Positions 1 to 17,841 of a DNA stretch of 18,255 nucleotides are shown piece after piece. Numbering within the stretch: position 1 is the first letter of the stretch; every line of letters starts with the position of its first letter. The position numbers were made by a program, and so were the translations under genes. The notes under the pieces were generated by a model. That model saw only the letters and a list, made by a program, of their open reading frames with translations, did no database searches and had not been told where the DNA came from. The DNA comes from an uncultured Chloroflexia bacterium. GTDB taxonomy: Bacteria > Chloroflexota > Dehalococcoidia > UBA2979. The DNA lies in NCBI GenBank assembly GCA_963728205.1, contig CAVSIV010000005.1, forward strand, positions 1 to 18,255, given 5' to 3'.

Positions 1-13
1 ACCAGCACCCCGT

Positions 14-25
14 TCTGAATCTGAA
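14..25 (+). repeat. Tandem hexamer TCTGAA-TCTGAA upstream of the integrase (possible att-arm or integrase-binding motif)
   Basis: Exact direct repeat at 14-19 and 20-25 in a locally AT-richer patch. The function is inferred only from its position. Confidence 0.3.
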
Positions 26-58
26 GCGACACCCTGACTGTTCGATCGCCCGGCGGGG

Positions 59-120
59 TTGTCACGCACAGCGCGCTCCGTGATGATAACTGGACAACGT
101 CCAGCGCAGCCCACGGAGGT
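59..120 (+). promoter_or_regulatory. Putative sigma70-type promoter and RBS of the integrase
   Basis: TTGTCA (59-64), 17-nt spacer, GATGAT (82-87); GGAGGT at 115-120 before the ATG at 126. Confidence 0.45.
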
Positions 121-125
121 GCCGC

Positions 126-1079
126 ATGGCACCCAGACGCCCCCGCGCGACCGTCGATTCGCCGCCGAGCGCTCCCGATCTCGCGGTGCTGGCACAGAGT
201 TTCCGGCTCTCGCTGCTCGCCGCGAACCGCGCCCCCCGCACCGTCGAGACCTACATGGAGGCGCTGGGGCTGTTCGAGCGGTTCCTCCAGTGGCACCGGC
301 ATGCCGCGCCGCGTCGGCGCAATCCACCGCGAGCGCGTTCGAGGCCTCGATCGCGAGCCTCCTCGAGCGCTGGAAGCCCGCGACCGCGCAGGAGAGCCGC
401 TTCAAGAGCATCGAGCAGTTCTTCAAGTGGTGCGTCGACGAGGGGGAGCTTCGGGACCGAGCCGATGCGGAATATGTCGCCCCCGAAGGTCCCGGAGAAG
501 CCGCCCGACGTCCTGACCGAGGAGGACAGCGGCGGCTGGTGCACGCCCTCAAGGGACCGACTTCGAGGCGCGCCGCGACATGGCCATCGTCCGCCTGTTC
601 ATCGACACCGGGATGCGGCGCGCGGACCTCGCCGGGCTGGCGCGTCGAGCGACCTCGACCTGGAACAGGCCGTCCAGGCGTACGTCATGGGCAAGGGCCG
701 CCGCGGGCGCGCCTGTCCCTTCGGACGACGCACGGCACAGGCGCTGAATCGGTACTCTCCGCGCGCGGCGCGCGCACCGCGATGCCGGGGACGAGGCGCT
801 CTCGGCTGGGCCTCGCCGGACCAATGACCCGCTGGGGGATCGTCGACGCGGTCTCGCGCCGCTGGGAGTGCGCCTGCCTCGGGCGCGTCAACGTCCATCG
901 CTTCCGGCACTCGTTCGCACACGAGCTGGCTCACGTCCGGCGGCAACGAAGGCGACCCTTCCGATGCGACTGGCGGGCTGGCAATCCCGCACGATGCTGC
1001 AGCGCTACGGAGCGAGCGCGGCCCCGATGAGCGCGCCCGCGAGGCCCACCGTCGCCTCAGCCCCGGCGATCGCATCTGA
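126..1079 (+). CDS. Tyrosine recombinase/integrase (frameshifted in this sequence)
   Basis: Rebuilt across frames: N-terminal SFRLSLLAANRAPRTVETY, then RRDMAIVRLFIDTGMRR, VMGKGRRGR, HRFRHSFAH, LMRLAGWQSRTMLQRYG (catalytic R, K, HxxR, W, Y; Tyr codon at 1006-1008). Ends HRRLSPGDRI-TGA (1077-1079). Confidence 0.93.
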
Positions 1080-1082
1080 GCA

Positions 1083-1482
1083 TCAGGAGCTGCGCGGCGG
1101 GCGACGGGGCGACGCCAACCGCAGCATCCTGCCGGCATCAGCATGCACGCGCAGCGCACCGACGAGTGCGAAACCCGCGGGGATGAGCGCGACGTCCCCC
1201 GTTCCGCCGGCGTCGTTGGCGCGCCCTTCGGCGGCTCGCAGCGCGAGGCGCGCGAAGTGTGCGCTGCGCGCCGCCTCGGCGCCGGCGCCGCCACTCGGGC
1301 GAGAACCCGAGCGAGACCGGGGCGTCCGGATCGACGTCGCGCTCGAACTTCGACAGGAACGCCGCCCGCGCGGACGCCGTCGTCTCGCGCGGATCGCGCT
1401 GGGCGTGCAGCGACCAGGCGACAACGCGGGCGCGCAATGAGCGGAGAAGGTCGTCCTCCTCGGCGCCGCGACCGCCCGTCAT
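1083..1482 (-). CDS. Small basic conserved hypothetical protein of mobile elements (frameshift near 1310-1325)
   Basis: RSLRARVVAWSLHAQRDPRETTASARAAFLSKFERDVDPD...RRRRAEAARSAHFARLALRAA resembles, from recall, a family seen next to integrases in actinobacterial elements and phages. Its ATG overlaps the toxin stop (ATGA, 1479-1482). The 3' end is uncertain. Confidence 0.7.
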
Positions 1483-1893
1483 GCGAACCAGTCCTCCACG
1501 GCGAGTCCGTGCACCGGCTCGAAGCGGCGTAGCGCGCGCGTCACCACGACGAGGCCGCGCGCGAGCGCGATCGCCGGAGCTGCGCTTCCGCCTGCCCCAG
1601 CGACGCCTCGCCTCGTCCCGGCGCGGCCACGCAGCTCCGCGTATTCCCGCGCGGCGTCACATCGAACGGCAACACCGTGAGGTTGCCAACCAGCGCTCGG
1701 TGGAGGCGCTCGACCCGGTCGGATGCGACAGCGCGCCGCGCTGACGCGCACCAGCGAGCAGCTGCCGCGACCGCGACTGCTCGATGTCGCTATCGCGTCC
1801 GGCGGCGTAGCCGCGATGCGCCGGAGCAGGCAGAACATTGGGAGCCGCGCGCAGGAGTTCGGCCAGCATGTCGGCCTCGAAGAGGTACTTCAT
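1479..1893 (-). CDS. vapC: PIN-domain (VapC-type) toxin (frameshifted)
   Basis: N-terminus MKYLFEADMLAELLRAAPN, then IATSS, VLPFD..AAREYAELR and C-terminal ARGLVVVTRALRRFEPVHGLAVEDWFA*. About 135 codons, directly downstream of the antitoxin with an ATGA overlap at 1890-1893. Confidence 0.85.
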
Positions 1894-2190
1894 GGCGCGA
1901 CCTCCGGGCCGCCGCCGCAGCGCCGGCCGCCCCTCCACCGCTCCGAGCAGTGCGTCGATCTCCGTCGTCGCGCGCGTCGAGCCACAGCGCTACGAGCGCC
2001 AGCGGTCCTGCCGGCCGCGCTCGGAGGGCGTGCCCAACTCGATGCATTCGAGGTCTGCACGGCGACGATTGCTGCAACGGCGTGCCCGTGCCGTGGAGAC
2101 GAGGTAGCGTTCGCGGCGGTGCGCGACGCCTTCAATCACCGCCGAGAAGTTGGCCTTGGCTTCTGCCGTCGTGATGCGTGTTGCGGTCAT
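1890..2190 (-). CDS. Phd/YefM-family antitoxin (frameshifted)
   Basis: MTATRITTAEAKANFSAVIEGVAHRRERYLV.RHGHAVAAIVAV is the typical Phd/YefM N-terminal pattern. RBS GAGAGGA upstream of the ATG at 2190. Confidence 0.88.
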
Positions 2191-2242
2191 GGTGTCCTCT
2201 CAGAGCCAATAGGTCGGGGCGGGCAACCGGTCAGGGTGACCG
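2184..2242. promoter_or_regulatory. Putative antitoxin operator pair and internal TA promoter
   Basis: Perfect palindrome CGGTCA-GGG-TGACCG (2228-2242) and a degenerate copy CGGTCA-TGG-TGTCCT (2184-2198) over the antitoxin RBS and start. Weak minus-strand CTGACC-N17-TATTGG (2234 to 2206). Confidence 0.5.
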
Positions 2243-3985
2243 AGACGGGTCCGCGCGTCGTCCTCCGCGGTCCGCCAGATTGGTCCGAGGAGACCACCGC
2301 CGTTTGCGGGGGTCCGCGCGACGATCGCCAGTCGTTCGTGAGCAGCAGCGGACGCTCCGGCACGCCCGCGGCCGCCTGCTTCACCCGTCGCTCCGCGCGG
2401 TCGTCCGCGCACACGAAGAGCACCAGGGCTCGCGCTCGAAGTCGGCCGCCAGGCGCGGCCTCGAGTAGCGCCGGTACCCTCGAACTTCGCTGCGAAGTCG
2501 CCCCCGTCGAGCGTGCCCGCGGTCGTACTCGAGCAGGAACGGGACGGGTGCATCACCGAGGCGCAGCAGGCCCGCCCCGTCGGGCCGGATGAACCATCCC
2601 CGTCCGTCGCGCGGAAGCGCCGAGTCGAGGCGGCCTCGCTCCGCCACTCGACCAGGCACCCACCCGGCACGCCGCGCGTCGCACGCCAGCCGCACGAACG
2701 TCCGGTTCACGCCGCGCGTGTGCGCGCCGTGCCGGCAACGCCACCTGCCGATCGCGTCGCCGCCGGCGCCACGCCGCCGAGCGCGCGAAACGCGCCGGCG
2801 GGACGACCGCGCCGCGCCGCGAGCCCGCAGCCCGCACTCGCCCAGCAGATAGGCCGGCGCGCCCGTGTCGACCGCGCGGGCGACGCGCTCACCGCGCCGC
2901 ACCGCACGAGCCACGCGAGCCGCCGCGTCGAGCGCCTCGGGCGGCGCGTCCGCGTCAGCGACCGCGAGCTCCTGCGCGGTCAGCAGCGGGTGGTAGGCGA
3001 CCCACTCGACCAGCCGCTTCTCGACGGCGCTCGGTTGCGATCGAGAGCCCGGCGGTGCGCTCGCCCGGCGAGCCGCACCTCGCCCGCCGCGGCGTACGGC
3101 GCCCACGCGCGCAGCGTCCCGTCGCTGCAGCACCGGAGCGGCGCGATCCTCGTGGAGCGGCAGCGAGGGCGCGGGACGGCCGTCGCTCGCCCCACGCGAG
3201 CGCCGGGTGAGGCGTTGCCACCGCTCGCTGCCCGGGGCGCGCCACGCAGTCGCCGGCGGGCCCTCGCGCAGCGCATCCACGCGGTCGGGAGGAGGGCGGG
3301 CACCGCGCGTCGCGCTCGCCGGCATCCAGCAGCGCCCGCTCCCACGGTCGAGTTCCCGTTCGCCGGCGGCGACGACCAGGATGGCAGCCCTCGGCGCCCC
3401 ACCGTCGGACGCCAGGCCGCGGCCCAGCGCGCCACCCGCGCGCGGCGGTGGGCGTCGGGCGCGGCGGCCCGATCCCACGCCACGAAGAAGGGCGCCCACG
3501 ATCCCGGCGCCCAGGCAGCCGTAGCCCTCCACGCCGGGCGGCCACCAGCGCGTCCGCGGCGGGCGCCGGCCAGCGGCAGCGAGCGTACGTCGACGAGCTC
3601 AGCGATCCCGGCATCGCGAGCGGCCGCCGCGAGGTCGCGAGCAGGCGGTTGACGCCGGCGGTCGTCTCCATGCGCGCGGCGCGGTCGAGCACGTCCGCCG
3701 TCGCACGGGCAGGCCCGCGCCAGCTCGGTCCCCGGCAGCCCGATCGCCGCGGCGAGCGCCGGCACCGCCTACTCGCGCAGGTAGGCGAAGCGCCGCTGGT
3801 CGAGCCCCGGCAGCCCGGCACGATCCAGTCGACCCAGCCACGGCGCTCGAGCTCGTGACGGAGCGCCCGCGCGTCCTGCTCATGGACGCCGAGGAGCGCG
3901 CGAGCTCGCGCTCGCCGAGCAGCGGCAGCCGCGCAGATCCAGTCGAGCGCCGGCCCGAGCAGCGCGGTCGATCGGCTGCCCTCAT
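2200..3985 (-). CDS. Replication-relaxation (Replic_Relax, MOB_C-like PD-(D/E)XK) relaxase with a tandem domain duplication (frameshifted)
   Basis: The C-terminal unit has HTRGVNR, WFIRPDGAG, PFLLEYDRGT, FAAKFEGY and VLFVC. The N-terminal unit has parallel but degenerate motifs. The ATG at 3985 overlaps the upstream stop; ends PTYWL-TGA at 2200. Confidence 0.82.
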
Positions 3986-6549
3986 GGCGTCGCTCCGTTC
4001 CCGCGCATCGGCGGGGTCGCGCTCGTCCAGTCCGCGTCGCCCGCCGTGCGGTGACTGTCACCTGTCCCCGCCGGTCTGCCGCCGCGGCTCGGCTGGCTCT
4101 GGTCGGGCCGCGGCCCCTTCGAGGCTGCGGCCGTGCGGGTCCCCGTTCGGGTCGACACGCGCTCGCGCAGCGCCGCGTCGATCTCCGCGCGACGACCTCG
4201 GCTCGCGGCCGGCCGTAGCGCGCGGCCGAGCGCTCCGCGAACGCCCGCACCGTGGTCGGGTCCGCGCGCGGCGGCGCGGTCGACGCGAAGCGTGAACACC
4301 GGCCGGGCGCCGGCCGTCCGTCCCACCACCGCGCGTAGCACTTGAAGTCGTCGAGTCGAGACGAGGTCCTCGATCTCGAGCGTCGCTCGCCGAGCTCCGG
4401 CACGCAGGCGACGCGCGTCCTCCGCGCTCACCTGGAAGACCGTCAGGCCGTCGGTGTTCGAGAGGATCGTCGGGGCGAGGTTGCGGTCGATCGCGTCGAG
4501 CTTCGCGAGCGACTGCGTGACCAGCACGAACGACGCGCCGTACTTGCCGAGCTCGGAGAGCATGCGCGGGTAGTCGACGGCGCCGAGCGTGCTCGACTCG
4601 TCGACGAGCGCCACGACGCGGCGGCGCTGCGCCGGCGGGCAGCGCGACCTGCTCCTCGACGAGCAGCCCCAGCAGGTTCAGGAGGGTCGCGCCGACGAGC
4701 GACGCGGCACCTCGCCCAGCGTCGCCGACCGCGCTGTTCACGACGAGGACGCCGCCCTCGCGCAGGAGCGCGCGCGGATCGAAGGTCGAGCGCGCCTGCC
4801 CGAACACGAGGCGCGAGGCCTCGGTCGACGTGAAGCGGCCGATCTTCGAGGTCACGGGATTCGCGGTCTGCTGCTGCAGCACCCGCCCCGCGCGGTCGTA
4901 GTTGTCGCGCCACCAGGCGGCGAGCGCGGGGTCGTTGACCTGGGCCAGCACGCGCTCGCGGAAGCGCTCGTCGGTGAGCAGCGGAGCAACGTCGAGCAGC
5001 GTGTACTGCTCTTCGCGCGGCGGCGCTGCGCGTTGGCGTCGAGCAGGCAGGCGAGCGACGGCGCGCAGCGCGCCCTCCATGCGCGGACCCCAGTTCGCCG
5101 GCCACAGGCGGTTGAGCATCGTCACGATGTGCTCGATCGTGCGGTCGCGGTCGGGGAAGAGCGCGCCGTCGAGCAGGTTGAGGCCGAGCGGCGTCGACGC
5201 GTCGGCGAAGTTGAGGTACGATCACGCGGTCCTGCAGCGCCTGGGGCACCGAGGCGAGCACCGCCTCGTGCGAGGTCCTGGTGCGGATCGATCACCGCGA
5301 GCGCCGCGTGGTCGAGGCCGGCGGCGACGCGCTCCATGACGCCGGCCGCGATGTGCCGCAGCAGCGTGGACTTGCCGCGGCGCGTCTTCGCGACGATCAG
5401 CTGGTTGCGGTGCAGCAGGCGTCGCCGGCAGGAACACGGCGCTGCCGCGGCCGCCGCGGCCGACGCGCACGCCGCCTGCCCGCGTGGCCCGGCGGCGGGG
5501 CCAGGTCGCGCGCCCGCGGTCCGTGCGGCACGCCGCGGCACCGCCTCGCCGCCCGTCGGCAGGTGCCAGAGCGGCCCGGCCTCGGCCAGCGTTGAGCAGC
5601 AGCGGGCCCGGGTCGCCCACCGCTCGAAGCCATCGTCGCCAGCCGCCCGGGACGCAGCTCCGCCCCGGCGTCGTCCGCGAACACGCCGGAGGCGTCCGCG
5701 ACCGCTTCGCGCGAGCATCGCGCAGGCGCCGCTCGGCGAGTCCGCCGGCCCGAACGCCGCAGATCTCGAGCGAGGCGCGCAGCAGCGGCGACGCGAGCTT
5801 GCGTTCCACGAGCGCGCCGACGGAGCGGCTCGCGCCCGCGGCAGCAGCCGGAACACCAGCGCGCCGAGCGAGCGGCAGCCCCACGAACACGCCGACGCCG
5901 GCGAGGGCGAGCTGCAGCATAGTCCCCGGCGCGGTACCAGCGCGACGCCTGGAGTCCGCCGGCGATCAGCACCAGCAGCGAGGACGATCGGGGGCCGAGG
6001 CCGCGAGCCCCGCGGTCCGCGGCTCGTCGCGCGTGCGCGCGGGCCGCGGTCCTGCGCCGCGCGCGCACCTTCGCCGCGCCCGATGCGGGGCGGCCGGGCG
6101 CCGTCCAGCCGGATCACGACGCGCTCGCCCGTCGCGCGAGCGGTCGCGCGCCGCGCACGCCGGCGAGCGGATCGCGCTCGCGGTCCCAGTCCGCCGCGCA
6201 GCGGCAGCGTCCGCGTCGCCGCCGCAGTCGCAGTCACCTGGCACGCGCTCTCGGGCCCATGCGCCGCGCCGGATCGAGGTCCGGGCGGCTCGCCGCCGAC
6301 CGGCTCCGGTCGACGCCCGGGTGGGTCGCCGCCAAGCCCGCCGCGCGCGCGGTCCAGCGCTCCTCGGTCGCGGCGCGGACGTACCAGCGCGGCCCCGCCC
6401 GGGTGACGACGCGTGTCGAGTGTCATGCCGCGCCGGTCCACGGCGCCGAACATCGCCCGCGCGGCGGCGCATCCCGTCGTCGAGGCATGCGCGGCGGGCA
6501 CGATCTCCGCCAGGCGCGCGGCCGCCTGCGATCACTGTGATCGTCGCAT
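3982..6549 (-). CDS. virD4: VirD4/TraG-like type IV coupling protein (heavily frameshifted)
   Basis: Two hydrophobic segments (~5850-5990), Walker A LIVAKTRRGKST (~5368-5400), VIDPHQDL, NWGPRMEGALR, Walker B ALVDESS, ELGKYGASFVLVTQSL, ILSNTDGLTVFQVSAEDA. GGAGGT RBS before the ATG at 6549. Both termini are approximate. Confidence 0.85.
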
Positions 6550-6561
6550 CGCGACCTCCCG

Positions 6562-7559
6562 TCACGCCTCGCAGTTGCTGGAAGAAGGCCTCGCGCCCGT
6601 CCGGGCGCTGGCCGAGCTCGCCGACGTCCTTGACCCCGGCCGGGAGCGCGAGGACGGTCGCGCGGTCGCCCAGGTCCGCGGCGAGGTCGTGCGCCGCCGT
6701 CGCGCCCGGCGTCGTCGGCGTCGAGCACGAGCACGACCGAGCGGGCACGGGCGAGCAGGCGCGCCACGGTCTGGCCGGGGTGCGAGCCGAGCAGCGCGCA
6801 GGCCGGAAGCCCCCAGCCGACGAGCGTCAGCCAGTCGAACGGGCCTTCCGTCACGAAGATCCGCGCGCGGTCGGCCACGAGCTGCCATCCCAGCAGCGGG
6901 CGTGGGAGCGCGACGGCGCGGTAGCGCGGCTCGCGACCGTCGAGGGACGCGCCCGACCATCCAGACACAGCGGCCCGCGCGCAGCTCCGGCACGACGATG
7001 CGTCCGGCCATCGCCTCGCGCTCGCCGCGGTCGAGCAGGCCCAGCTCCCGCGCCCGGGCGACGCTCAGCCGCCTGCGCTTGAGGTAGGCGGCGAGCACCG
7101 TCCCGTCCGAGTAGCCGAGCCGGAAGCGGCGGGCGACCGGGCGCGAGAACGCCGCGGCGCTCGAGGTAGGCGAGCGCCTCCGGGGCCTGCTCGAGCGCCT
7201 CCTGGTAGAGCTCGCAGGCGGCGGCCAGGATCACGCGGTCGTCGAGCGGTCAGCGCGCGCTGTGCGGGGCGGTCGCTCACCGGCGCGGGCGCCGGCCGCA
7301 GGCCGTCGAGCCGGGTGAGCGCCTGCTTGAAGTCGAGGCCCTCGGCGCGCCGCAGGAAGTCGATCACGTCCCCGCCCGCGCCGCAGCCGAAGCAGAAGTA
7401 GCTCTGCGTCGCCGGGTAGACGACGAGGCTCGGCCTGCCGTCGTTGTGGAAGGGGCAGCGCCCCGTGAGGCGCCGGCCGTGCGGACGCAGCCGCACTCCG
7501 TGCGAGCCGATCACCTGCGCGATCGGGTTGCGGCGCTTGAGCGCGTCGAGGTCGGTCAT
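6562..7559 (-). CDS. DnaG-like primase: CHC2 zinc finger plus Toprim domain (frameshifted)
   Basis: CPFHNDGRPSL...YFCFGCGAGGDVIDF zinc finger; YLERRG, RLGYS, GRIVVP; Toprim VTEGPFDWL and LVLDADDAG; KDVGEL. About 330 codons. The ATG overlaps the VirB4 stop (7556-7559). Confidence 0.92.
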
Positions 7560-9390
7560 GGCTGCACCTCCTCGGGATCCGGGATGGCTTCGGGATTGCC
7601 GTGCAGGTCCTCCGGGCTGGTGGTGCTCACTGCGTGCTCCCGGGCGCTGGCGACAACGGACAGCGCGACGTGATTGCCACGCGCGAGGAAGAGGCCCTCG
7701 CCCTTGCGGCACGAGACGAGGAAGGCGCGCTCGGCGGGCGAGAGACCGAACGTCTCCGCGACGAGTCCCGCCGACGAGGCGTCCTGGCGCATCAGCAGCT
7801 GCACGGAGCTGTTCGCGAGGACGGTGTGGCCCTCGGGCGAGCGCAGGAAGTCCTCGACGTCCTGCGTCACGGTCGTGAGCCCGAGCCAGCGCTTGCGGGC
7901 CCGCCGCGCGACCTGCGCGAGGAAGTGCGCGCCCTCCGGGTAGCGCATGAGCGACCAGGCCTCGTCGATGAGGAGCATCCGCGGCCGCGGGTCCGTGCGC
8001 GCCTGCCGCCAGACGTGATCCGCGATCAGGTAGGTGGCGAGCGGGCGCAGCTCCTCCTCGAGGTCGCGCACGTTGAAGACGGTGAAGGGGCGGTCGAGGG
8101 CGACGGTCGTGCGCTCCGAGAAGACCCGGCCGAGGCTGCCGTCGACGTAGCGCTCGAGGCGATCGCCGAGGGCGTGCGGGTCGTCGCCGGCGCGCAACAC
8201 GCCGAGCAGGTCGCGCAGCACCGGAGCGGCGCGGTCGTGCGTGGCCGGGTCCGCCGTGATCCCAGCCGCCGCGTAGGTGCGATAGAGCGCGGCGTCGAGC
8301 GCGCCTCGCTCGGCGCGGCCAAGCGCCTGCCCCGGCTCGGCCAGCATCAGCGCGAGGAGGCCGTGCAGCGCGAGCACGCGCTCCGCGAGCGCGTCCCCTT
8401 CGCCCGCATCCCCGTCGGAGGCCGGAGCGAGGTCGAAGGGGTTTACGTGATGGGGCGAGGTGCCGGAGAGGCGCACCATCTGCCCGCCGACGGCGTCGCA
8501 GATCCGGCGGTACTCGTCCTCGGGATCGACGACCACGTAGTCGATCCCGAGCAGCAGCGCGCGCAGCGCCTCGACCTTGCAGGCGTAGGACTTGCCGGCG
8601 CCGCTCTTCGCGAAGACGACCTTGTTCGCGTTGTCCTCGGTCGCGGCGAACGGGTCGAAGATCGACGAGCCCGCCGCCCTGGAGGTTGCGACCGTAGAGG
8701 AGACCGCGGCCCGTCCCGAGGTCGCCGGAGGTGAACGGGATCATCGTCGCGGCGCTCGAGGTGTCGAGGTTGCGGCGCCGGCGCAGGTGATCCTGCGCGG
8801 CGGGGAGGCACGAGAGCAGGCCCGGCAGCATCTCGTAGAGGGCGGGCGCCCACCGTCGCCATCGCCCCGCCCAGCTCCGCCTCGACGAAGCGCTGAGCCC
8901 GATCGAGTTCGGCCTCCGTCCGCCCGTGGAGGCGCAGGTAGAGGGCCGTCGAGAAGACGCGCTCGTCCCCGCGCTCGATCGCGTCGCGCAGCCGCTCGAC
9001 GTCCGCGTAGGCGACCTCGCGCTCGGACGACGCGATGCGGCCGCCCTTCGCGTCGAACATGCGCGACGACTGCAGCTCGACGAGGCGGCGCGTGAGCCAG
9101 CGCACGACCTCGCGCGAGTCGAGCGGCTCCAGGTGGAGGCTCAGGTCCAGCGGCTCGCCGGGATCGCCCAGTCGTCCGAGCCAGTTCGGGTGGACGTGCC
9201 GCGGGTACTCCGTGAGGGCCAGCACTCGCGTGCGCTGCCCGTCGACGAGCAGCTCCGCGCGACGCTCCTCGATCGCCATCGGGGCGACGAGATCGACGGC
9301 GGCGCGCCGGCCCGCTGCGAGCGTCTCGGCTGCCTGCCGCGAGGCGCGCGGGACACGCCGCGATCGGAGGGGGAGTGAGTTACGCGCCAC
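7556..9390 (-). CDS. virB4: VirB4-like conjugative ATPase (frameshifts near 8660 and 8840)
   Basis: EYPRHVHPNWL, RNLDTSSAATMIPFTS, DPF..EDNANKVVFAKSGAGKSY (Walker A ~8588-8611), VVVDPEDEY, INPFD-like VNPFD, Walker B LLIDEAW, RRARKRWLGLTTVTQDVEDF. RBS GGAGGAGGT before the GTG at 9390. Confidence 0.93.
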
Positions 9391-10040
9391 GGCGCACCTC
9401 CTCCCGGCTCGTCGCAGACCCGGATGGCCGGGCGCTCCCGGCGATCACGTCGCGCCAGAGCACGAGCAGCTCGTCGCCCGCAAGACGACGGGCGTGCAGC
9501 CCGAGTGCGGCGAGCGCCTGGGTGAGCTCCTCGCAGCGCAGCGCCAGCGTGCGGGCGGCCATCTCGTCGGAGGCTCGACGTGCGCGCGCGTGGCTCCTCA
9601 GCAGGGCGCGCACTCCCGGTTGCGCGCTCGGCGCCGGGACGTCCGCCGTGACGACGACGAAGAACCGCCGCTCGAGCGGGGTGCGCTCGCGCGCGAGACG
9701 CCGCACGAACGAGGCGTGGTCGCGCGCGAGGCGCATCGCCGGCCTCGCCCAGGCGCGCGTCCCGCGCACCCTCGAGCCCCGCGAGGTAGCGCTCGACGTC
9801 GGTCGGCGCGACCCGCACGAGGACCTGGATCGGGTAGGTCAGGCCGTTGAGGAGGCGGCGGTAGCCGGCGAGGATCGCCTCCTGCTCGACCTCGGAGCGC
9901 AGCGCGAAGTTGATCGCGCCCGTCTCCAGGACGGCGCGGCAGGATCCGTCGCGCAGCCGCACGACGTCGCCGGCGATCTCGTCGAGCGGGAGCAGCGCCT
10001 GCACGCTGCCGAGCCGCCGTCGCTCACGCTTCGAGCGCAT
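9380..10040 (-). CDS. TraC-like / VirB4-associated conjugal transfer protein (frameshift near 9745)
   Basis: SVQALLPLDEIAGDVVRLRDGSCRAVLETGAINFALRSEVEQEAILAGYRRLLNGLTYPIQVLVR...LERRFFVVV...ALGLHARRL..ELLVLW, the pattern of the protein usually found between PrgI and VirB4 in such systems. RBS AAGGAGAGG. Confidence 0.78.
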
Positions 10041-11735: not shown

Positions 11736-12386
11736 GGCGTCGCGCTCCCCGCGCCGCCGCAACGGCCCGCCGCCGCGCCGCCGCCCAGCGCGCCCACCGC
11801 ACGCCCGACGACGACCAGCGACACGACCGTGGCGAGCCCGGCGTGATGCGGTCCGCCGTGCAGCACCGCCGGGATCTTGAGGGTGAGCCAGCAGACCGCG
11901 ATCCCGAGGAAGAGCGTGAGCAGTCGTCGGCACCTGCCGAGTGCGGTGCAGCTCTACCATGAGCAGCGTGCCGAGGCGCAGCGCGAGCATCTGCACGGCC
12001 TGCTGGAAGACGGTGATCGGGAAGAGGTGCGCCCACCAGCGCGTCCAGCCCTGCGTCTGCGGGATCGCCCAGAGCACCGCGACGACAGGGGCGCGAGCGC
12101 GATCAGGACGTCGACGAGCGCAAGGCGCATCAGCATCTGGAACGCGAGCAGCAGCGCCACGACGGCGTACGCGACCCCGACCAGCACGTGCGCGATCCCG
12201 TTCGCGGGCGCACCCGCCTGGGCGTAACCGGGTAGCGTCGACGCCCCGATCGCGCCGGTAAGGGCGTTGTTGAGCGTCGATGAGCACGCGCGCGAACTCG
12301 AGCGTGAGGTTGGCGGCGAGCGCCGCGATCGCGATGCGCGGCAGCAGCTCCATCGCGCCGTCGTAGGGACTGCGCGTGTGCTGCTC
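11732..12386 (-). CDS. VirB6/TrbL-like polytopic conjugation membrane protein, 5' part missing
   Basis: EQHTRSPYDGAMELLPRIAIAALAANLTLEFARVLID.NNALT...LLLAFQMLMRLALVDVLIALAP.VAVLWAIPQTQGWTRWWAHLFPITVFQQAVQMLALRLG...LFLGIAVCWLTLKIP. Several TM helices. It begins abruptly at the junction with the hydratase gene. Confidence 0.78.
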
Positions 12387-13069
12387 ACCCGCTCCGCGTA
12401 GCGGTACGACTCGTCGATCTGGAGATGGCGCCATTGATGCGTGACGGCCTTCGTGCCTTCCACGGAGAGCGGCGCATTGTCGGCGATCATCTCCGCGATC
12501 TCCACCGCCCGCGGCATGAGCTGCTTCGGCTCAAGCACCTCGTGCACCAGACCGCAGCGCAGCGCCTGTTCCGGCGAGACGCGATCGCCGGTGAGCAGGA
12601 TGTACATCGCCTCGCCGAACGGGATCACGCGCGCGAGGTGGTGGACCGCGTAGCCGGCGAGGATGCCGCGCTTCACCTCGAACAGGCCGAAGTATGCCTC
12701 GCTTGAGCAGATGCGGATATCGCAATCCAGCGCCCGCTCGAGGCCGCCGGCGAGGCACAGCCCGTTGATCGCCGCGATGAACGGTTTGGGGTTCCGCGAG
12801 AACTGGAGCGTCGTCCCGCCGATCGTGCGCGTCGTCCGCTGGCTACCGCGTGCGTTCCGCGCCGCCATCTCCTTGAGGTCTGCCCCGGCGCTGAAGGCGC
12901 GACCCTCGCCCGTCACGATGCCCGCGCGCATGGCGGGATCCGCGGTGAAGTCCGCGAGCGCCGCGGTCAGTTCCTGCTGCATCGTCCCGCCGAGCGCGTT
13001 CAGGCGCTCGGGACGGTTCATGCGGAATACCGCGTAGCGCTCGCGCTTCTCGTAGACCAGGTCACTCAC
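12387..13069 (-). CDS. Enoyl-CoA hydratase/isomerase (crotonase family), 3' end missing
   Basis: MNRPERLNAL, GRAFSAGADLKE, KPFIAAINGLCLAGGLE..LDCDIRI, FGLFEVKRGI, IADNAPLSV. Both catalytic Glu positions are present. Similarity stops at YRYAERV, without the usual SED..EG..AF.EKR tail. RBS AAAGGAG. Confidence 0.93.
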
Positions 13070-13164
13070 GGTTCGCCCGCTCCTTTCGTCCGCGGGTACT
13101 TGCGCTTCGCGGGCCCACGCCCTGATCCGCTATCTCCATGGCTGCCGCTGGAACGGCATCGCAG

Positions 13165-14365
13165 CTACCCGAATATCCGCGACATTGCGAGCGTGGCGAT
13201 CTCCTCGCTGTCGAAGCCGTGCTCGAGCAGCACCTCGTGTGTGTGTCCTCCGAGATCTGGTGCGGGCCGGCGCGGGCCGACCTCCGAACCCGGCATGCGG
13301 AACGGCACGGCAAGCGTCGAGAACCGTGAACCGTCCGGACGCTCGAGCTCAGCGAAGCGCTCCGCCGCCTCCGCCTGAGGATCGTCGAGCACCTCTGGGA
13401 GCTCGACGATGGGCTCCCAAATCAACCCGGCTCCATCGAAACGGGTCGCCCAGTCTGCACGCGGACACGTCGCCAGCTCGGCATCGATCGCCGCGGTGAG
13501 CGCCTCGGTGTGCTCACGGCGGGCGGCCAGCGAGGCGTAGCAGGGGTCGTGCTCCCATTCCTGGTGCCCGACCCCCCGGCAGAACCCGGGCCAGTACCGA
13601 TCCGACTGCGGCATCACGAGCGCCAGCCAGCGGCCGTCACCGCAGCGGTAGGTGTTGGCGAGCGGGTTGGCCGGCCTTCGGCGGTCCCGAAACTCCGGCT
13701 GGCGCCGCGTGAAGAGCGTTCGCGAATAGTCGCTGCCGATGGTCCACATGCCCGCGGCGAACAGGCTGGCGTCGACGACGCCCCCACGCCCGGTGCGATC
13801 GCGCTCGTGGAGCGCAGCGAGCACCGCGCTGAGGAGCGCGAGTCCCGCCGTGTGATCGCCCTCCCCTCCCCGGAACATGCCGGGCGGGCAGTCGGGTTGG
13901 CCCACGATGCCCATGATCCCCGTGCGTGCCCAGAACGCCGCGTTGTCGAAGCCGGCGCGCTCGCGATCGGGGCCCTCGAGGCCATAGGCCGTCATTGACG
14001 CATGCACCGTCGCCGGCGCCTCGGCGTGGACGGCCGCAGCCGTCAACTCGTAGCGTTCCTGCCGGGCGGCCGTGAGATTGGTAATGAAGACGTCGACGCC
14101 CCGGCAAAGGCGCCGGACGAGCGCGGGGCCTTCCCACTGCTCGAGGTCGACGATCACCGAGCGCTTCCCACGATTATCGAGTTCGAACACCGAGCCTCCA
14201 CCGACCGCCCGGCGCCGGCCCTCCCGACGCGCGCCAGGCGTCCCCGGCCGGCGGCTCGAGCTTTACGACATCAGCGCCGAGGTCGGCCATGATCGCGCCG
14301 GCGCTGGGGGCGGCGACCCAGGTCGCCAGCTCCAGCACGCGGACGTCCTCGAGTGGTCCGGGCAT
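13165..14365 (-). CDS. Family III CoA-transferase (CaiB/BaiF), frameshift near 14190-14230
   Basis: MPGPLEDVRVLELATWVAAPSAGAIMADLGADVVKLEPPAGD, FELDNRGKRS, DVFITN, AYG..GPDRERAGFD (catalytic Asp present), RDRTGRGGVVDASL, APDLGGHTHEVL. Confidence 0.95.
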
Positions 14366-14397
14366 GTGCTTCCTCGCTTCTCGCGCTCCGCGCGCGC

Positions 14398-15574
14398 TCA
14401 ATCGCCCGACGGCGGGCGGTCGGCCAGCATTCGCGCGAACGCGATGCTTCCGCTCGCGAACGCCGCAACCTGGGGGACGTCGACGCTCGACGGGTACCGA
14501 ATCCTCCCGCATGTGGAACAGCGCGTTGTCGTTCGTCAGCGCGGCGTATCGGCGGCCACCGCGTCGATGCACGATCGCCATCTCGCCGCCGCCGCCACTG
14601 CTCTCGCGAGCATCGCGCACTACCAGCCGCGTCTCGCGCGTTCCTGCGCCCTGGAGGGCGCGCTGGAACGCCTCCCCGAGCCGCACGTCCGAGGCCGCGA
14701 TGTTCCCCTGCGTCGCCGCCGCCGCGCCGATGTTCGCCCCGAAGTGCAGCCACGTGGCGTCGGTCGCGAGCGTGGGGCGGGCGGCGAGCAGGACCTCGAG
14801 GCCGTAGAACCCGAGCTCGTGGCCCGTGTTCGCCGCGAAGATCACGGTGGACGCCGGCCGATGCGCGATGAACGCGCGCATCACCTCGAGCCAGCAGGCG
14901 ATCCCGCCGCCGCGCTCGGAAGCCACCTCCCACCAGCCGCTGCGGGGCGTGTTCACGGCGAGCGTGCGTGCCGGGTCGGTGCCGGGGAGGGTCGCGAGGA
15001 CGTTGAAGGTGTCCGACGACACGCGCTCCGCGTGGATCACCGCGCGCACGGTCGCTCCGCGTCGGGCGGCCTCGCGCAGCCGCGGACCGTGCTCGCTCTC
15101 AACCTGCATGACCGGCGGGCCGAAGGGCGCGGTGAAGTGAGGCGCGTTGAGCAGGGCCAGGCCCGGGGTGCGCCCCTCGGTGACGACGACGAGCGCCCGC
15201 TCGGGCCCCGTCCGGCGCGCCTCCAGCAGCGCCGTCGGCTCGCCGTTCGGCGGGCTCGCCGCCAGGCCGATCACGCCGCCGTGGCCGGCCTCGCGCAGGT
15301 CCCCCACGATGCCGTCGCGTCCCGTGTACGAGCAGTCGAACAGCGGCACTCCGTCGATGCGCTCGCCGTCGACCTCCATCCAGCACGCGCGCGGCTCCAC
15401 GCGGTCGAGGTGGACCGGGACGAGTTCCGGCTCGAGGCCGAGCCCGCGGACCTCCTCCGCGAGCCACTCCCCCGACCGCCGATCGACGTCGGTGCCGGTG
15501 CGATGGTGGCCCTGCGCGTCATACTCCTCGATCAGCTTCGAGATGCGCCGAGTGAGCGCAACCGTGCTCGCCAT
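14398..15574 (-). CDS. Divergent M28 peptidase-fold (Zn-exopeptidase-like) protein, frameshift near 14500
   Basis: HRTGT..D..SGEWL, NVLATLPG, VNTPRSGWW..ASERGGGIACWLE, FAANTGHELG..G, WLHFGANIG, LFHMRED-RYPSSVDV...ADRPPSGD-TGA (14398). RBS GGGGAGGG before the ATG at 15574. Confidence 0.7.
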
Positions 15575-15638
15575 GAACCACCGTCCCTCCCCGCAGACCC
15601 CGTGTCGGTCGACACCGTCGCCGGAGCCCTGCAGAGTG

Positions 15639-16795
15639 CTAGGCGACTCCGCTCTCGCCGACAACCCTATCGCGGAGGAGCGCGTCAACCTCGGCCGGCT
15701 CCAGTCCGAGCAATGCTTCGAGGACCTCCCGCGTCTGACCACCGGCAAGAGGTGCAGGGCCGGCGGGCATCGCCGGTGAGCGCGAAAAGCGCATCGGCGG
15801 CCGAAGCAGCGGAACTTGCTTTTCCAGCGGGTCGCTCTCCCACACAACGGTCTCGCGCTCTTCGAAGAACGGGTGGCCGAGCGCCTCCTGCAGGGTCTTC
15901 ACCAGTCCATAGGGAGCCCCGCTCCGCTCGAGACCGTCGACGACCTCTTGCGCCGTGCGCTGCGCGACGAGCCTGCCGATGAATCGTTCGCCTCCGTCCC
16001 GGATGGCGCAACGGCAAAATCGGGCCCACTTAGACCTTCCATCAGCCGCGACCAGTTTCGTGGGCTGCCGAGGTTGATCGTGAAGTGCCGTCCGTCCTTC
16101 CAGCGATGGATCGGGTGCCGGAACGGCTCCCAGTGGTCATCGTCCGCGCCTGCAGCACCCTGGGCCGCCGCCTCGCCGAGGAACGCCAACTGACTTTCCA
16201 TGAGCGTTATGTCGATCTGCTGCCCGCGTCCGGTGTGCTCCCGGTCGTACAGCACCGCCAGGATTGCCGCGAAGGCGTTCATCCCCGTCGCGACGTCCGC
16301 GATCTGCAGCCCCGGCGCCAGCGGCTCGGCCTCGCCGTGAGCGCGCTGCAGGATCCAGAGCAAGCCGGCTTCCGCGTGGGCCGTCGCACCGTAGGCTCGG
16401 CGGGTGGCGTGTGAACCGCTCTGGCCGAACCCGGAGATCGATGCGTAATCAGCCGCTCGTTGGCGGCAGCGAGCGTCGCGTAATCGAGCCCAACCGCGCA
16501 GGACGCCCGGTGCAAAGTTCTCGACGACGACGTCCGAGGCGGCGGCAAGCCGTCCGGCGAGCGCGGCGCCTCGTGGCGACTTCAGGTCCATGGCGATCGA
16601 GCGTTTCCCCGCGTTGTTCGTCGCCCCGCCGTTGCTGCGCACGGGTGCGCTCCCGGCAGGTATGCGATCGATCTTCACCACGTCGGCGCCGAGGTCGGCG
16701 AGCAGACGCGTGCAGTAGGGCCCAGCGATCACCTGCGTGAAGTCCAGGACGCGGATGCCGTCGAGAATGCGACGGCTCATGTAACCCGGGGTCAT
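15639..16795 (-). CDS. Second family III CoA-transferase (CaiB/BaiF), atypical active site (frameshifted)
   Basis: LDGIRVLDFTQVIAGPYCTRLLADLGADVVKID, NAGKRSIAMDLK, DVVVENFAPGV, GLDY..L, YASISGFGQSG, REHTGRGQQIDITL, APLAGGQTREVL. The ATG overlaps the upstream stop (16792-16795). Confidence 0.93.
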
Positions 16796-17841
16796 CGCGG
16801 AGCCGCCGTGGCAAGGCGATCCCAGAGCTCGTGGTCGAACTGCGATCCTGCCGGCGATTGGGCACCGGCCGGCGCGCCGAGGCGCGCTACGACGAGACCA
16901 AGGCTCGGCACGACGTACAGCTTGCAATCGCCCGTCCCCAGCGCGGCGATGAGGTCGTTCGGGGCCGTCGGGATCAGCGGACCGCGCTCGACGTCGCCCG
17001 TCGGCCGGAGCACGCGATCGCGACCGTTGAGCCACCACAGCAGGCCGTACGCCGGGTTGTGCGGTTGCGACGTCTGCAAAGACTCCGAGAGACCAGCCGA
17101 GGACACGATGCGCGTCCCGTCCCACACGCCGTCGGCGAGGACCAGCAGTCCGAGACGCGCCAGGTCGAGCGGCGACGTGGCGAGGCCGAGCATGGGACTT
17201 CCAGCGACCTGCGGGGCATGTGTCCGCTCGATCCAGCGCGTGTGACGCATGCCCAGCGGCGCCGTCAGCCACTGCCGCGTCAGGTCGTCCCGGTCCGTCC
17301 CGGCGGCGGCCGCAATGACCCGCACCAGCAGCTGATACGCAGGCGTGTTGTACCGCCGGCGCGCACCGACCGTGCTCAGGCGCGAGAGCATCATCAAGCG
17401 CGCTCGTCATCGAGAGCAGATGACGCACCGTGACATCACGCTCACGCTCGACGGCTGCACGCGACCACCCATTCCCCAGGTAGTCCGACGCCGGCCGCTC
17501 GAAGTCGAGGATGCCGCGCTCCGTGCGATCTGCGCGAGGAGGCCGTGAAGCTCTTCTGGACCGAGGCCACGTCCTCGATGGGGCCACCATGCGCATCGCG
17601 CCCGAGTGACCTGGGAGCGCCGGGAGGTCGCCGTCGGGCGTACCGGCCGCCGTGTCCGTCGGCGGCCGGCACGTTCGGCGATGATCCGTCCGCGCCAGAC
17701 AACGGCCACGCCGCTGCTCGTGCGCTCCTCCGCGAACCGGAGCGCCGCATCGAGCCGCGCGGCATCCCAGCCGGCTGCCGCCGGTGAGGCACGTGTCCAT
17801 TCAGTTGAGGGAAAGACGAGGGCATCCGTCGTGGCAGCCAC
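16792..17841 (-). CDS. Serine hydrolase, beta-lactamase/penicillin-binding-protein-like family (frameshifted)
   Basis: SxxK motif DVASVQKSFTA, TVRHLLSMTS, YNTPAYQLL, LTAPLGM, DLARLGLLVLADGVWDG, AYGLLWWLN, LYVVPSLGLVVARLG. RBS AAGGAAGG before the GTG at 17841. Confidence 0.9.

Follow-up and report, generated by a model that had tools for sequence, protein, structure and literature searches.

The 18,255-nucleotide stretch analyzed here (the window: positions 1 to 18,255 of contig CAVSIV010000005.1, from an uncultured Chloroflexia bacterium of the Dehalococcoidia lineage UBA2979) contains a gene of about 600 codons on the minus strand (2200..3986) that encodes two tandem copies of one module, each composed of a winged helix-turn-helix, a nuclease core and a tail. 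The C-terminal copy (C-unit) belongs to the Replic_Relax family (PF13814), which includes the MOBC-type relaxases, and it retains a full set of predicted catalytic residues; in the N-terminal copy (N-unit) most of these are replaced. As judged from the neighboring genes, the host structure is an integrative conjugative element (ICE) of Chloroflexota (class Dehalococcoidia), with the gene at the position expected of the relaxase. We are confident of the two-module architecture and the relaxase assignment taken together. On balance, we also favor the fuller statement that this is an ICE relaxase with a duplicated module, in which a live C-unit would be paired with a non-catalytic N-unit to give a nick in one strand. 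In the mechanism that we propose, the C-unit core would cut at the origin of transfer (oriT), and the N-unit, binding DNA via its own winged helix, would be a non-catalytic partner occupying the place of the second subunit in a restriction-enzyme-like dimer; having a single active site, the complex would nick one strand only. This pseudodimer-nickase step is put forward tentatively, with rather more doubt than conviction.

No long open reading frame (ORF) spans 2200-3985; pieces of one protein are found across all three minus-strand frames. All twelve pairs of motifs that had been quoted in the original prediction of two parallel units were recovered in these frames between 3986 and 2212. The limits of the gene come from three-frame translation and from an alignment, with frameshifts allowed, of the window DNA to a position-specific profile of 11 homologues (span 3986 to 2212, minus strand). 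A word-indexed search with the 383-residue window ORF returned one relative, P0002, a protein of 599 residues with the same two-unit layout in one ORF, and 298 of 567 aligned codons of the window gene are identical to it (53%). The only Pfam match among the raw ORFs of the relaxase region is that of PF13814 to ORF 2381-3532 (4.6e-13; 50.1 bits against a cut-off of 25.3; profile positions 2-179 of 191). The C-unit scores still higher in P0002 (64.6 bits) and in the genomic homologue L020 (ORF 7974-9824; 86.8 bits), and hence the early assignment of the C-unit to this family holds.

The duplication is evident from a comparison of profiles of the two halves, cut from an alignment of 39 full-length homologues (residues 1-260 of P0002 for the N-half and 310-599 for the C-half). 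hhalign aligns the two colinearly from end to end over 250 columns (local mode: probability 99.8%, E = 7.3e-29; global mode: E = 3.2e-36), as against E = 0.35-0.4 for the N-half with a column-reversed C-half and E = 0.42-0.93 with five column-shuffled C-halves. The tandem duplication proposed earlier is thus borne out, and it covers the winged helix, the core and the tail: the winged helices alone align with E = 1.2e-17 and the nuclease cores alone with E = 4.7e-18. In the ESM Atlas model of P0002 (predicted template-modeling score 0.78), residues 3-265 match a 324-residue single-unit cluster of the “replication-relaxation family protein” (TM 0.79 by query and 0.66 by hit over 250 residues), 100% of whose members contain PF13814, and the C-half matches PF13814-rich Chloroflexota clusters. 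A winged helix precedes the core in both units, with MarR_2 and HTH_IclR matches in the C-unit and HTH_IclR or GntR-type matches at the start of the N-unit. A sequence search of the PDB with the family profile recovered winged-helix regulators only (MarR-type at positions 311-400 and IclR/GntR-type at 22-84) and no structure of a nuclease core. In P0002, hmmscan shows a single stretch of PF13814, in the C-unit, even at E <= 10; the N-unit is linked to this family only via the profile-profile comparison and the Atlas structure match. As the hhalign, Atlas, Pfam and PDB matches give both units the same parts, we conclude at the level of sequence that each is a winged helix, nuclease core and tail, and that the entire module has been tandemly duplicated.

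The window gene aligns to P0002 over residues 1-599, and its closing stop is that of the frame-0 ORF 2200-2670. All its parts lie on the minus strand. The N-unit begins with a winged helix-turn-helix at 3748..3959 (P0002 residues 10-80; an HTH_IclR match covers residues 19-55 of L020), followed by the degenerate nuclease core at 3342..3703 (P0002 residues 95-214), which is supported by the cores-only hhalign comparison and the Atlas match, and by a tail at 3198..3341 (LLTT...G...IWR-like) that duplicates the tail of the C-unit. After a variable linker at 3036..3197 (P0002 residues 263-318), the C-unit opens with its winged helix-turn-helix at 2869..3032 (P0002 residues 320-372; MarR_2/HTH_IclR matches and MarR structures), just after which lies the natural split site of other lineages discussed below. 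The C-unit core, at 2379..2740, is marked by the PF13814 match on ORF 2381-3532 and by invariant columns, and is followed by the tail at 2212..2378 (LLTxxWR...G..G.iW).

The two cores differ sharply in their catalytic positions. Seven columns are invariant in the alignment of 39 homologues: six in the C-unit (H430, P476, D477, E494, R497 and K508) and one in the N-unit, a tryptophan of the core (W214; window 3344-3342). Over 68 two-unit sequences (the 39 representatives and 29 fused genomic ORFs), H430, P476, D477, E494 and K508 of the C-unit are each present in 68/68, D496 in 66/68 (Glu in the other two) and Y512 in 66/68. The N-unit equivalent of H430 is His in 3/68; that of D477 is Glu in 29, Asp in 13 and some other residue in 26 (acidic in 42); that of E494 is Ala in 51/68 and acidic in 0/68; that of D496 is Asp in 66/68; that of K508 is Arg in 47/68 and Lys in 1/68; and that of Y512 is Trp in 60, Leu in 8 and Tyr in none. 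The C-unit thus displays an acidic metal triad (D477, E494 and D496), of which the N-unit has no central acid. With the addition of 16 more divergent members (84 sequences), the five-residue H/D/E/D/K set is found in 83/84 C-units and 0/84 N-units, the N-unit having an acid at the Glu position in 0/84 and the Tyr in 0/84. Hence, the homologues do not keep the catalytic residues in both halves, in line with the initial idea of one intact and one dead nuclease. The window copy shows the same pattern. Its N-unit has T, V-E, A, D, R and W (Thr 3665-3663, Val-Glu ending at 3527, Ala 3480-3478, Asp 3474-3472, Arg 3438-3436 and Trp 3426-3424) where the C-unit has H, P-D, E, D, K and Y (His 2722-2720, Pro-Asp 2584-2579, Glu 2530-2528, Asp 2524-2522, Lys 2487-2485 and Tyr 2476-2474). 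The N-unit had been described as having lost the His, the PD, the Glu of the ExD and the K..Y. This stands for the His (now Thr), the Pro of the PD (Val), the Glu of the ExD (Ala), the Tyr (Trp) and the Lys (Arg), and goes too far for the acidic positions, where a Glu occupies the Asp site of the PD and the Asp of the ExD is kept.

In overall conservation the two units are comparable: the mean pairwise identity is 0.322 for the winged helix and 0.318 for the core of the N-unit, 0.299 and 0.362 for those of the C-unit, and 0.20 for the linker. The N-unit thus appears to be under constraint, about as conserved as the C-unit and without decay, and it is from its residues that we would call it catalytically “dead.” It further possesses a conserved set of tryptophans, comprising those of a WWPP and a VAWDR motif, the Trp replacing the catalytic-side Tyr, and W214 (W146, W170, W187, W214 and W248 in P0002; window 3342-3560). 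Most of these have no counterpart in the C-unit, which suggests that they form a new surface.

Intact relatives of the gene are numerous. A phmmer search with P0002 against 1.84 billion cluster representatives recovered 716 proteins with E <= 1e-3, 302 with E <= 1e-10 and 64 with E <= 1e-30. Using separate hidden Markov models for the N-unit and the C-unit, we classified 150 of these proteins (the query and 149 matches, with the window’s own ORF excluded). Both units are whole in 51, and both are seen with at least one partial in 12. A further eight (“A-type,” 368-405 residues) contain the N-unit and the helix-turn-helix helices of the C-unit and end there, and six (“B-type,” 218-253 residues) begin at the wing of the C-unit and contain its whole core. 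The remainder have a whole C-like unit without a whole N-unit (26), a partial C-unit only (23) or the N-unit only (24); many of these incomplete members are probably fragments from metagenomic contigs, which cannot be distinguished here from stand-alone forms. No plasmid relatives were found by tblastn in 72,556 plasmid records with either the 383-residue ORF (E <= 1e-5) or P0002 (E <= 0.01).

At the level of genomes, a scan of one genome per species with the alignment of 11 sequences detected 45 loci, of which 43 have two units. Of the 45, 41 loci come from metagenome-assembled genomes (MAGs) of Dehalococcoidia or other Chloroflexota, one is labeled Gemmatimonadales and one Propionibacteriaceae; the other two, both single-unit relatives, belong to one MAG each of Actinomycetes and Dormiibacterota. 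Both units share one open frame in 29 of the 43 two-unit loci (590-670 residues), and the junction is in frame in two further loci cut by contig ends. Together with the 51 cluster representatives in which both units are whole, this confirms the expectation that homologues would encode the two units in a single ORF. The alternative of two separate genes, which had been envisaged for the corrected sequence, is realized in a minority: six loci (L003, L034, L035, L036, L042 and L039) are cleanly split, all at one identical place (profile positions 379|382). This place lies not between the units but inside the winged helix of the C-unit, after its helices and before its wing, and the A-type and B-type proteins terminate and begin at the same point. 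At the four junctions inspected (L003 9050-9230, L034 9090-9270, L035 9070-9250 and L036 9060-9240), the first gene stops with TGA and the second restarts at an overlapping ATG (ATGA) in three and at a nearby GTG in the fourth; a purine-rich Shine-Dalgarno-like stretch precedes the restart in all four. The split thus yields two translationally coupled genes, which in L035 occupy 7980-9152 and 9149-9928. The names of the contigs bearing split loci, as we read them, point to short-read assemblers. Other breaks occur in L025, L030, L037, L038 and L040, and the rest are contig ends. Because the cut lies inside a domain and deprives the catalytic core of the helix-turn-helix helices that belong to it, the split implies that the two products must associate. 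Grouping of the split forms in a single clade was rejected: when the nuclease cores are placed on a quick maximum-likelihood tree, five changes are required (L037, which breaks elsewhere, perhaps through an error, is included in this count), and starred branches force a minimum of three. That the window copy is itself a split form was rejected provisionally: its alignment crosses the split site with no stop, and its two closest relatives, P0002 and L001, are fused. An analogy is offered by the archaeal tRNA-splicing endonucleases, which combine a degenerate with a catalytic repeat; some lineages have the two in one fused chain, and other lineages have them as separate structural and catalytic subunits. 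They share with the present family a dead-plus-active duplication of a nuclease and the occurrence of fused and split gene forms, and differ in their RNA substrate, their biology and the absence of winged helices.

The gene-neighborhood of these loci is conserved, and the window agrees with it gene for gene from 2200 to about 11600. It comprises, in order, genes for an SLT/NlpC-P60 wall hydrolase, a pilin-like protein of type IV secretion systems, PrgI, a TrsD-like protein, a VirB4-like ATPase, a DnaG-like primase, a coupling protein of 850 residues and the two-unit protein; these are followed by a large serine recombinase or tyrosine integrase and then by ordinary chromosomal genes. In 35 of the 43 two-unit loci, the two-unit gene comes directly after that of a coupling-protein homologue, with the ends abutting or overlapping; four lack this homologue despite enough flank (L006, L027, L040 and L042) and four are cut by contig ends. 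The same order is seen in the window, where the frameshifted gene for a type IV coupling protein (T4CP) of about 850 residues (3981..6600, minus strand; TraG-D_C match; 536/817 residues identical to the T4CP of L022) abuts the start of the relaxase gene with its end. A recombinase homologue is found downstream in 22 of the 43. The four loci without the coupling-protein gene have 1.9-8 kb of upstream flank, and three of them have a recombinase downstream; these elements may be mobilizable rather than self-transmissible. The DnaG-like primase (CHC2 zinc ribbon and Toprim) lies between the VirB4-like and coupling-protein genes, at 6497-7562 (minus strand) in the window and at 4338-5468 in L020. 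Directly after the relaxase gene of the window, at about 1485-2190 on the minus strand, is a frameshifted pair of genes for a Phd/YefM antitoxin and a PIN-domain toxin, and such a pair also follows the relaxase gene in L016, L018, L002 and L031.

A point of reference among known relaxases is the replication-relaxation protein of pTEF1, which we take to be a pAD1-like plasmid. It is typed as MOBC by MOB-suite, scores 28.5 bits with PF13814, is encoded downstream of a coupling-protein gene and has a single unit of 261 residues, in agreement with the earlier statement that the known MOBC relaxases have a single nuclease domain. Proteins with PF13814 are called MobC by CONJscan and are associated with VirD4-type coupling proteins (PMC5357655). 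The MOBC relaxases are described as restriction-enzyme-like proteins with a DEE metal motif, and no covalent DNA intermediate has been seen with them (PMC6736028; PMC12857230). TraX of pAD1 has an essential tyrosine, Y181 (PMC6736028), and binds five direct repeats 70-120 bp from nic; how DNA is recruited, transferred and rejoined by MOBC enzymes without a covalent intermediate is posed as an open question in a 2025 review (PMC12857230). With the MOBC proteins, such as TraX of pAD1 and MobC of CloDF13, and with the pTEF1 homologue, the present family shares the succession of a winged helix and a PD-(D/E)XK-like core, an acidic triad, a place on a conjugative element beside the gene for a VirD4-type coupling protein and, in the C-unit, a score well above the PF13814 cut-off. 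It differs from them in having two modules per chain, the first degenerate and invisible to Pfam (about 600 residues versus 261), in a triad of the form D-E-D versus the D-E-E reported for the former, and in its Chloroflexota hosts and integrated elements.

These features bear on whether the protein is a relaxase at all; it might instead initiate replication, regulate transcription or be some other nuclease of the element. The Pfam family is named “replication-relaxation,” a survey of PD-(D/E)XK proteins described PF13814 as a predicted transcriptional regulator fused to helix-turn-helix domains (PMC3424549), no NCBIfam model comes close to its cut-off for P0002 or L020, and nicking by the Chloroflexota family is a prediction. 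Against this stand a fixed gene order, in which the T4CP gene immediately precedes this one at 35 of 43 loci and which is shared with the MOBC-typed protein of pTEF1, the CONJscan usage cited above, and an invariant catalytic set that argues for an enzyme; moreover, no other relaxase family had a match among the 14 ORFs scanned in the neighborhood of L020. We therefore consider a non-relaxase role very unlikely. What the N-unit does is less settled, and several observations weigh against the pseudodimer-nickase. Contact between the two cores is a surmise; in most N-units the Asp of the ExD persists (80/84), about half have an acid at the PD position (45/84) and Arg is the usual substitute for the Lys, so that the N-unit may have residual metal or phosphate binding, or another activity. 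The C-unit aligns weakly with the MOBC homologue of pTEF1 (hhalign E = 0.06), and the position of TraX Tyr181 falls on the non-conserved column 505 and not on Y512; the N-unit aligns with the same protein over the winged helix only (E = 0.013). These alignments are too weak for residue numbers to be transferred. A search for repeats in window 1-2300, and at four loci in the 400-600 bp that follow the gene, brought up nothing shared or array-like and no oriT candidate, and the window copy itself carries about 24 frameshifts. Further, the known single-unit MOBC relaxases nick with no inactive partner, and strand-specific nicking in this superfamily can thus do without a dead unit. Hence, the N-unit could be a built-in accessory only—a second DNA-binding domain, a regulator or a contact for the coupling protein—with no pseudodimer and with strand specificity coming from the C-unit alone; it would then fill the role of the separate accessory proteins of other relaxosomes. 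The binding of TraX to repeats distant from nic (PMC12857230) fits such a role as well as it fits a pseudodimer. In favor of the accessory role are also the existence of working single-unit forms, such as the pTEF1 homologue, the Trp-rich motifs peculiar to the N-unit and the split forms, in which a protein of about 385 residues joins the N-unit to the helices of the C-unit, giving two DNA-binding heads apart from the catalytic core. However, the N-unit has kept the whole fold of the nuclease core (core identity 0.318; cores-only E = 4.7e-18), beyond the needs of a DNA-binding head, and a split site inside a domain implies tight association of the two products. A purely accessory N-unit is thus a possibility to which we give only limited credence. 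A bolder extension of the pseudodimer-nickase, which we regard as doubtful, is that MOBC-type relaxases are asymmetric dimers whose asymmetry has become hard-wired in this Chloroflexota family: the conserved dead unit, with a winged helix of its own, would dock on oriT, and the single live core would face one strand. This core would be modular enough to have been split off repeatedly in evolution and recruited as a separate subunit, with three or more changes required by the tree.

A different objection concerns the window copy alone, which might be a real pseudogene in a decaying copy of the element and hence have no mechanism; the alternative is that its broken frames are errors of sequencing or assembly. 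The frameshift-tolerant alignment reveals 24 frame changes in the 1.8 kb of the relaxase gene (17 deletion-like and 7 insertion-like) and one in-frame stop. The coupling-protein gene has 27 and one stop in 2.6 kb (66% identity to its guide sequence), the primase-like gene has 4 and no stops in 1.07 kb (201/348 residues identical to the guide) and the VirB4-like gene has 2 and no stops in 1.83 kb (457/600), though all these counts may be inflated in weakly conserved stretches. Their concentration in the first two genes is what decay would predict, and in the non-element genes at 12-17.4 kb the G+C phase at third codon positions (GC3) is unchanged over long runs of about 0.4-2.1 kb. When frameshifts were counted independently from a GC3 phase plot, only this interval was informative, and the broken region gave no confident calls. 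Yet all genes tested are affected, even a non-element gene for a CoA-transferase, in which the Pfam domain is interrupted by a change of frame near 14.2 kb; the two worst genes have a single stop each and have kept 53% and 66% amino-acid identity to their guides; and every catalytic codon of the C-unit is intact. The G+C content of the window is 0.68-0.80 in 1-kb windows and 0.79-0.80 across the relaxase gene, and the frame breaks are densest at 5400-6600 and 2500-4000, where it is 0.77-0.80, as expected of indel errors. Because the density of breaks follows G+C, we read the frameshifts as indel errors left in a very GC-rich sequence and consider a genuine pseudogene unlikely. This copy may be non-functional or merely badly sequenced.

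To our knowledge, MOBC is among the least understood of the relaxase families, and we know of no explanation of how its cutting is confined to one strand. The original prediction saw a strong candidate for an undescribed mechanism in the fusion of an inactive and an active copy. This does not hold, as such a pairing is already established as a source of nickases: heterodimers of BbvCI in which one subunit is inactivated (R1-R2+) nick one strand (PMC3017599). Since the principle is known for restriction enzymes, the mechanism proposed here would be a new use of a known trick. Like the nucleases of the BbvCI/Mva1269I/BsmI type, for which two nuclease units, an asymmetric site and a nick from one working active site are described, the Chloroflexota family has two homologous nuclease units, one without the catalytic residues, which is the hallmark of the active/inactive PD-(D/E)XK nickases. 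It differs in that those are restriction enzymes or engineered variants, and the natural monomeric ones with two sites, such as Mva1269I and BsmI, hold two catalytic sites per chain (PMC3017599). By contrast, the dead/active pair in Chloroflexota is natural, fused, conserved across the family and part of a conjugation system; any likeness in packing is conjectural. Among the papers searched, we found none on a tandem or two-unit Replic_Relax/MOBC relaxase or on these Chloroflexota elements. As far as checked, then, the fused architecture, the hidden N-unit and the recurrent split are new, and the MOBC family and the pairing of a dead with a live unit were already known. Pfam detects the C-unit only, and thus the N-terminal 300 residues and the split proteins of about 385 residues are left unexplained in annotation. 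A large natural family in which one module is always degenerate makes asymmetric live/dead pairing biochemically testable. If the proposal is true, these proteins would be natural single-chain sequence-specific nickases and a handle on strand choice by relaxases without a covalent intermediate. The gene also marks a conserved conjugative element abundant in Dehalococcoidia.

To the right of the element, the minus strand of the window at 11954-17800 contains an enoyl-CoA hydratase gene and two genes for family III CoA-transferases. An ORF at 15899-17800 shows a weak fragment of a beta-lactamase fold (20.9 bits, below the Pfam cut-off of 27), which may be what is left of a serine hydrolase or an artefact of the reading frame. 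Elsewhere in the family, the nuclease cores of L018, labeled Gemmatimonadales, and L016, from Dehalococcoidia, are nearly identical (tree branches of 0.033 and 0.063), reflecting either a recent transfer or a mis-binned contig. Several copies of the gene can occur in one genome: the 3.67-Mb Dehalococcoidia chromosome OZ253555.1 has nine (L006, L007, L009, L010, L011, L012, L019, L030 and L037), with a coupling-protein homologue upstream of every copy except L006 (eight in all), and the CAXXYI assembly, a MAG, has three (L008, L013 and L021). The copies within one genome are diverged from each other, not identical.

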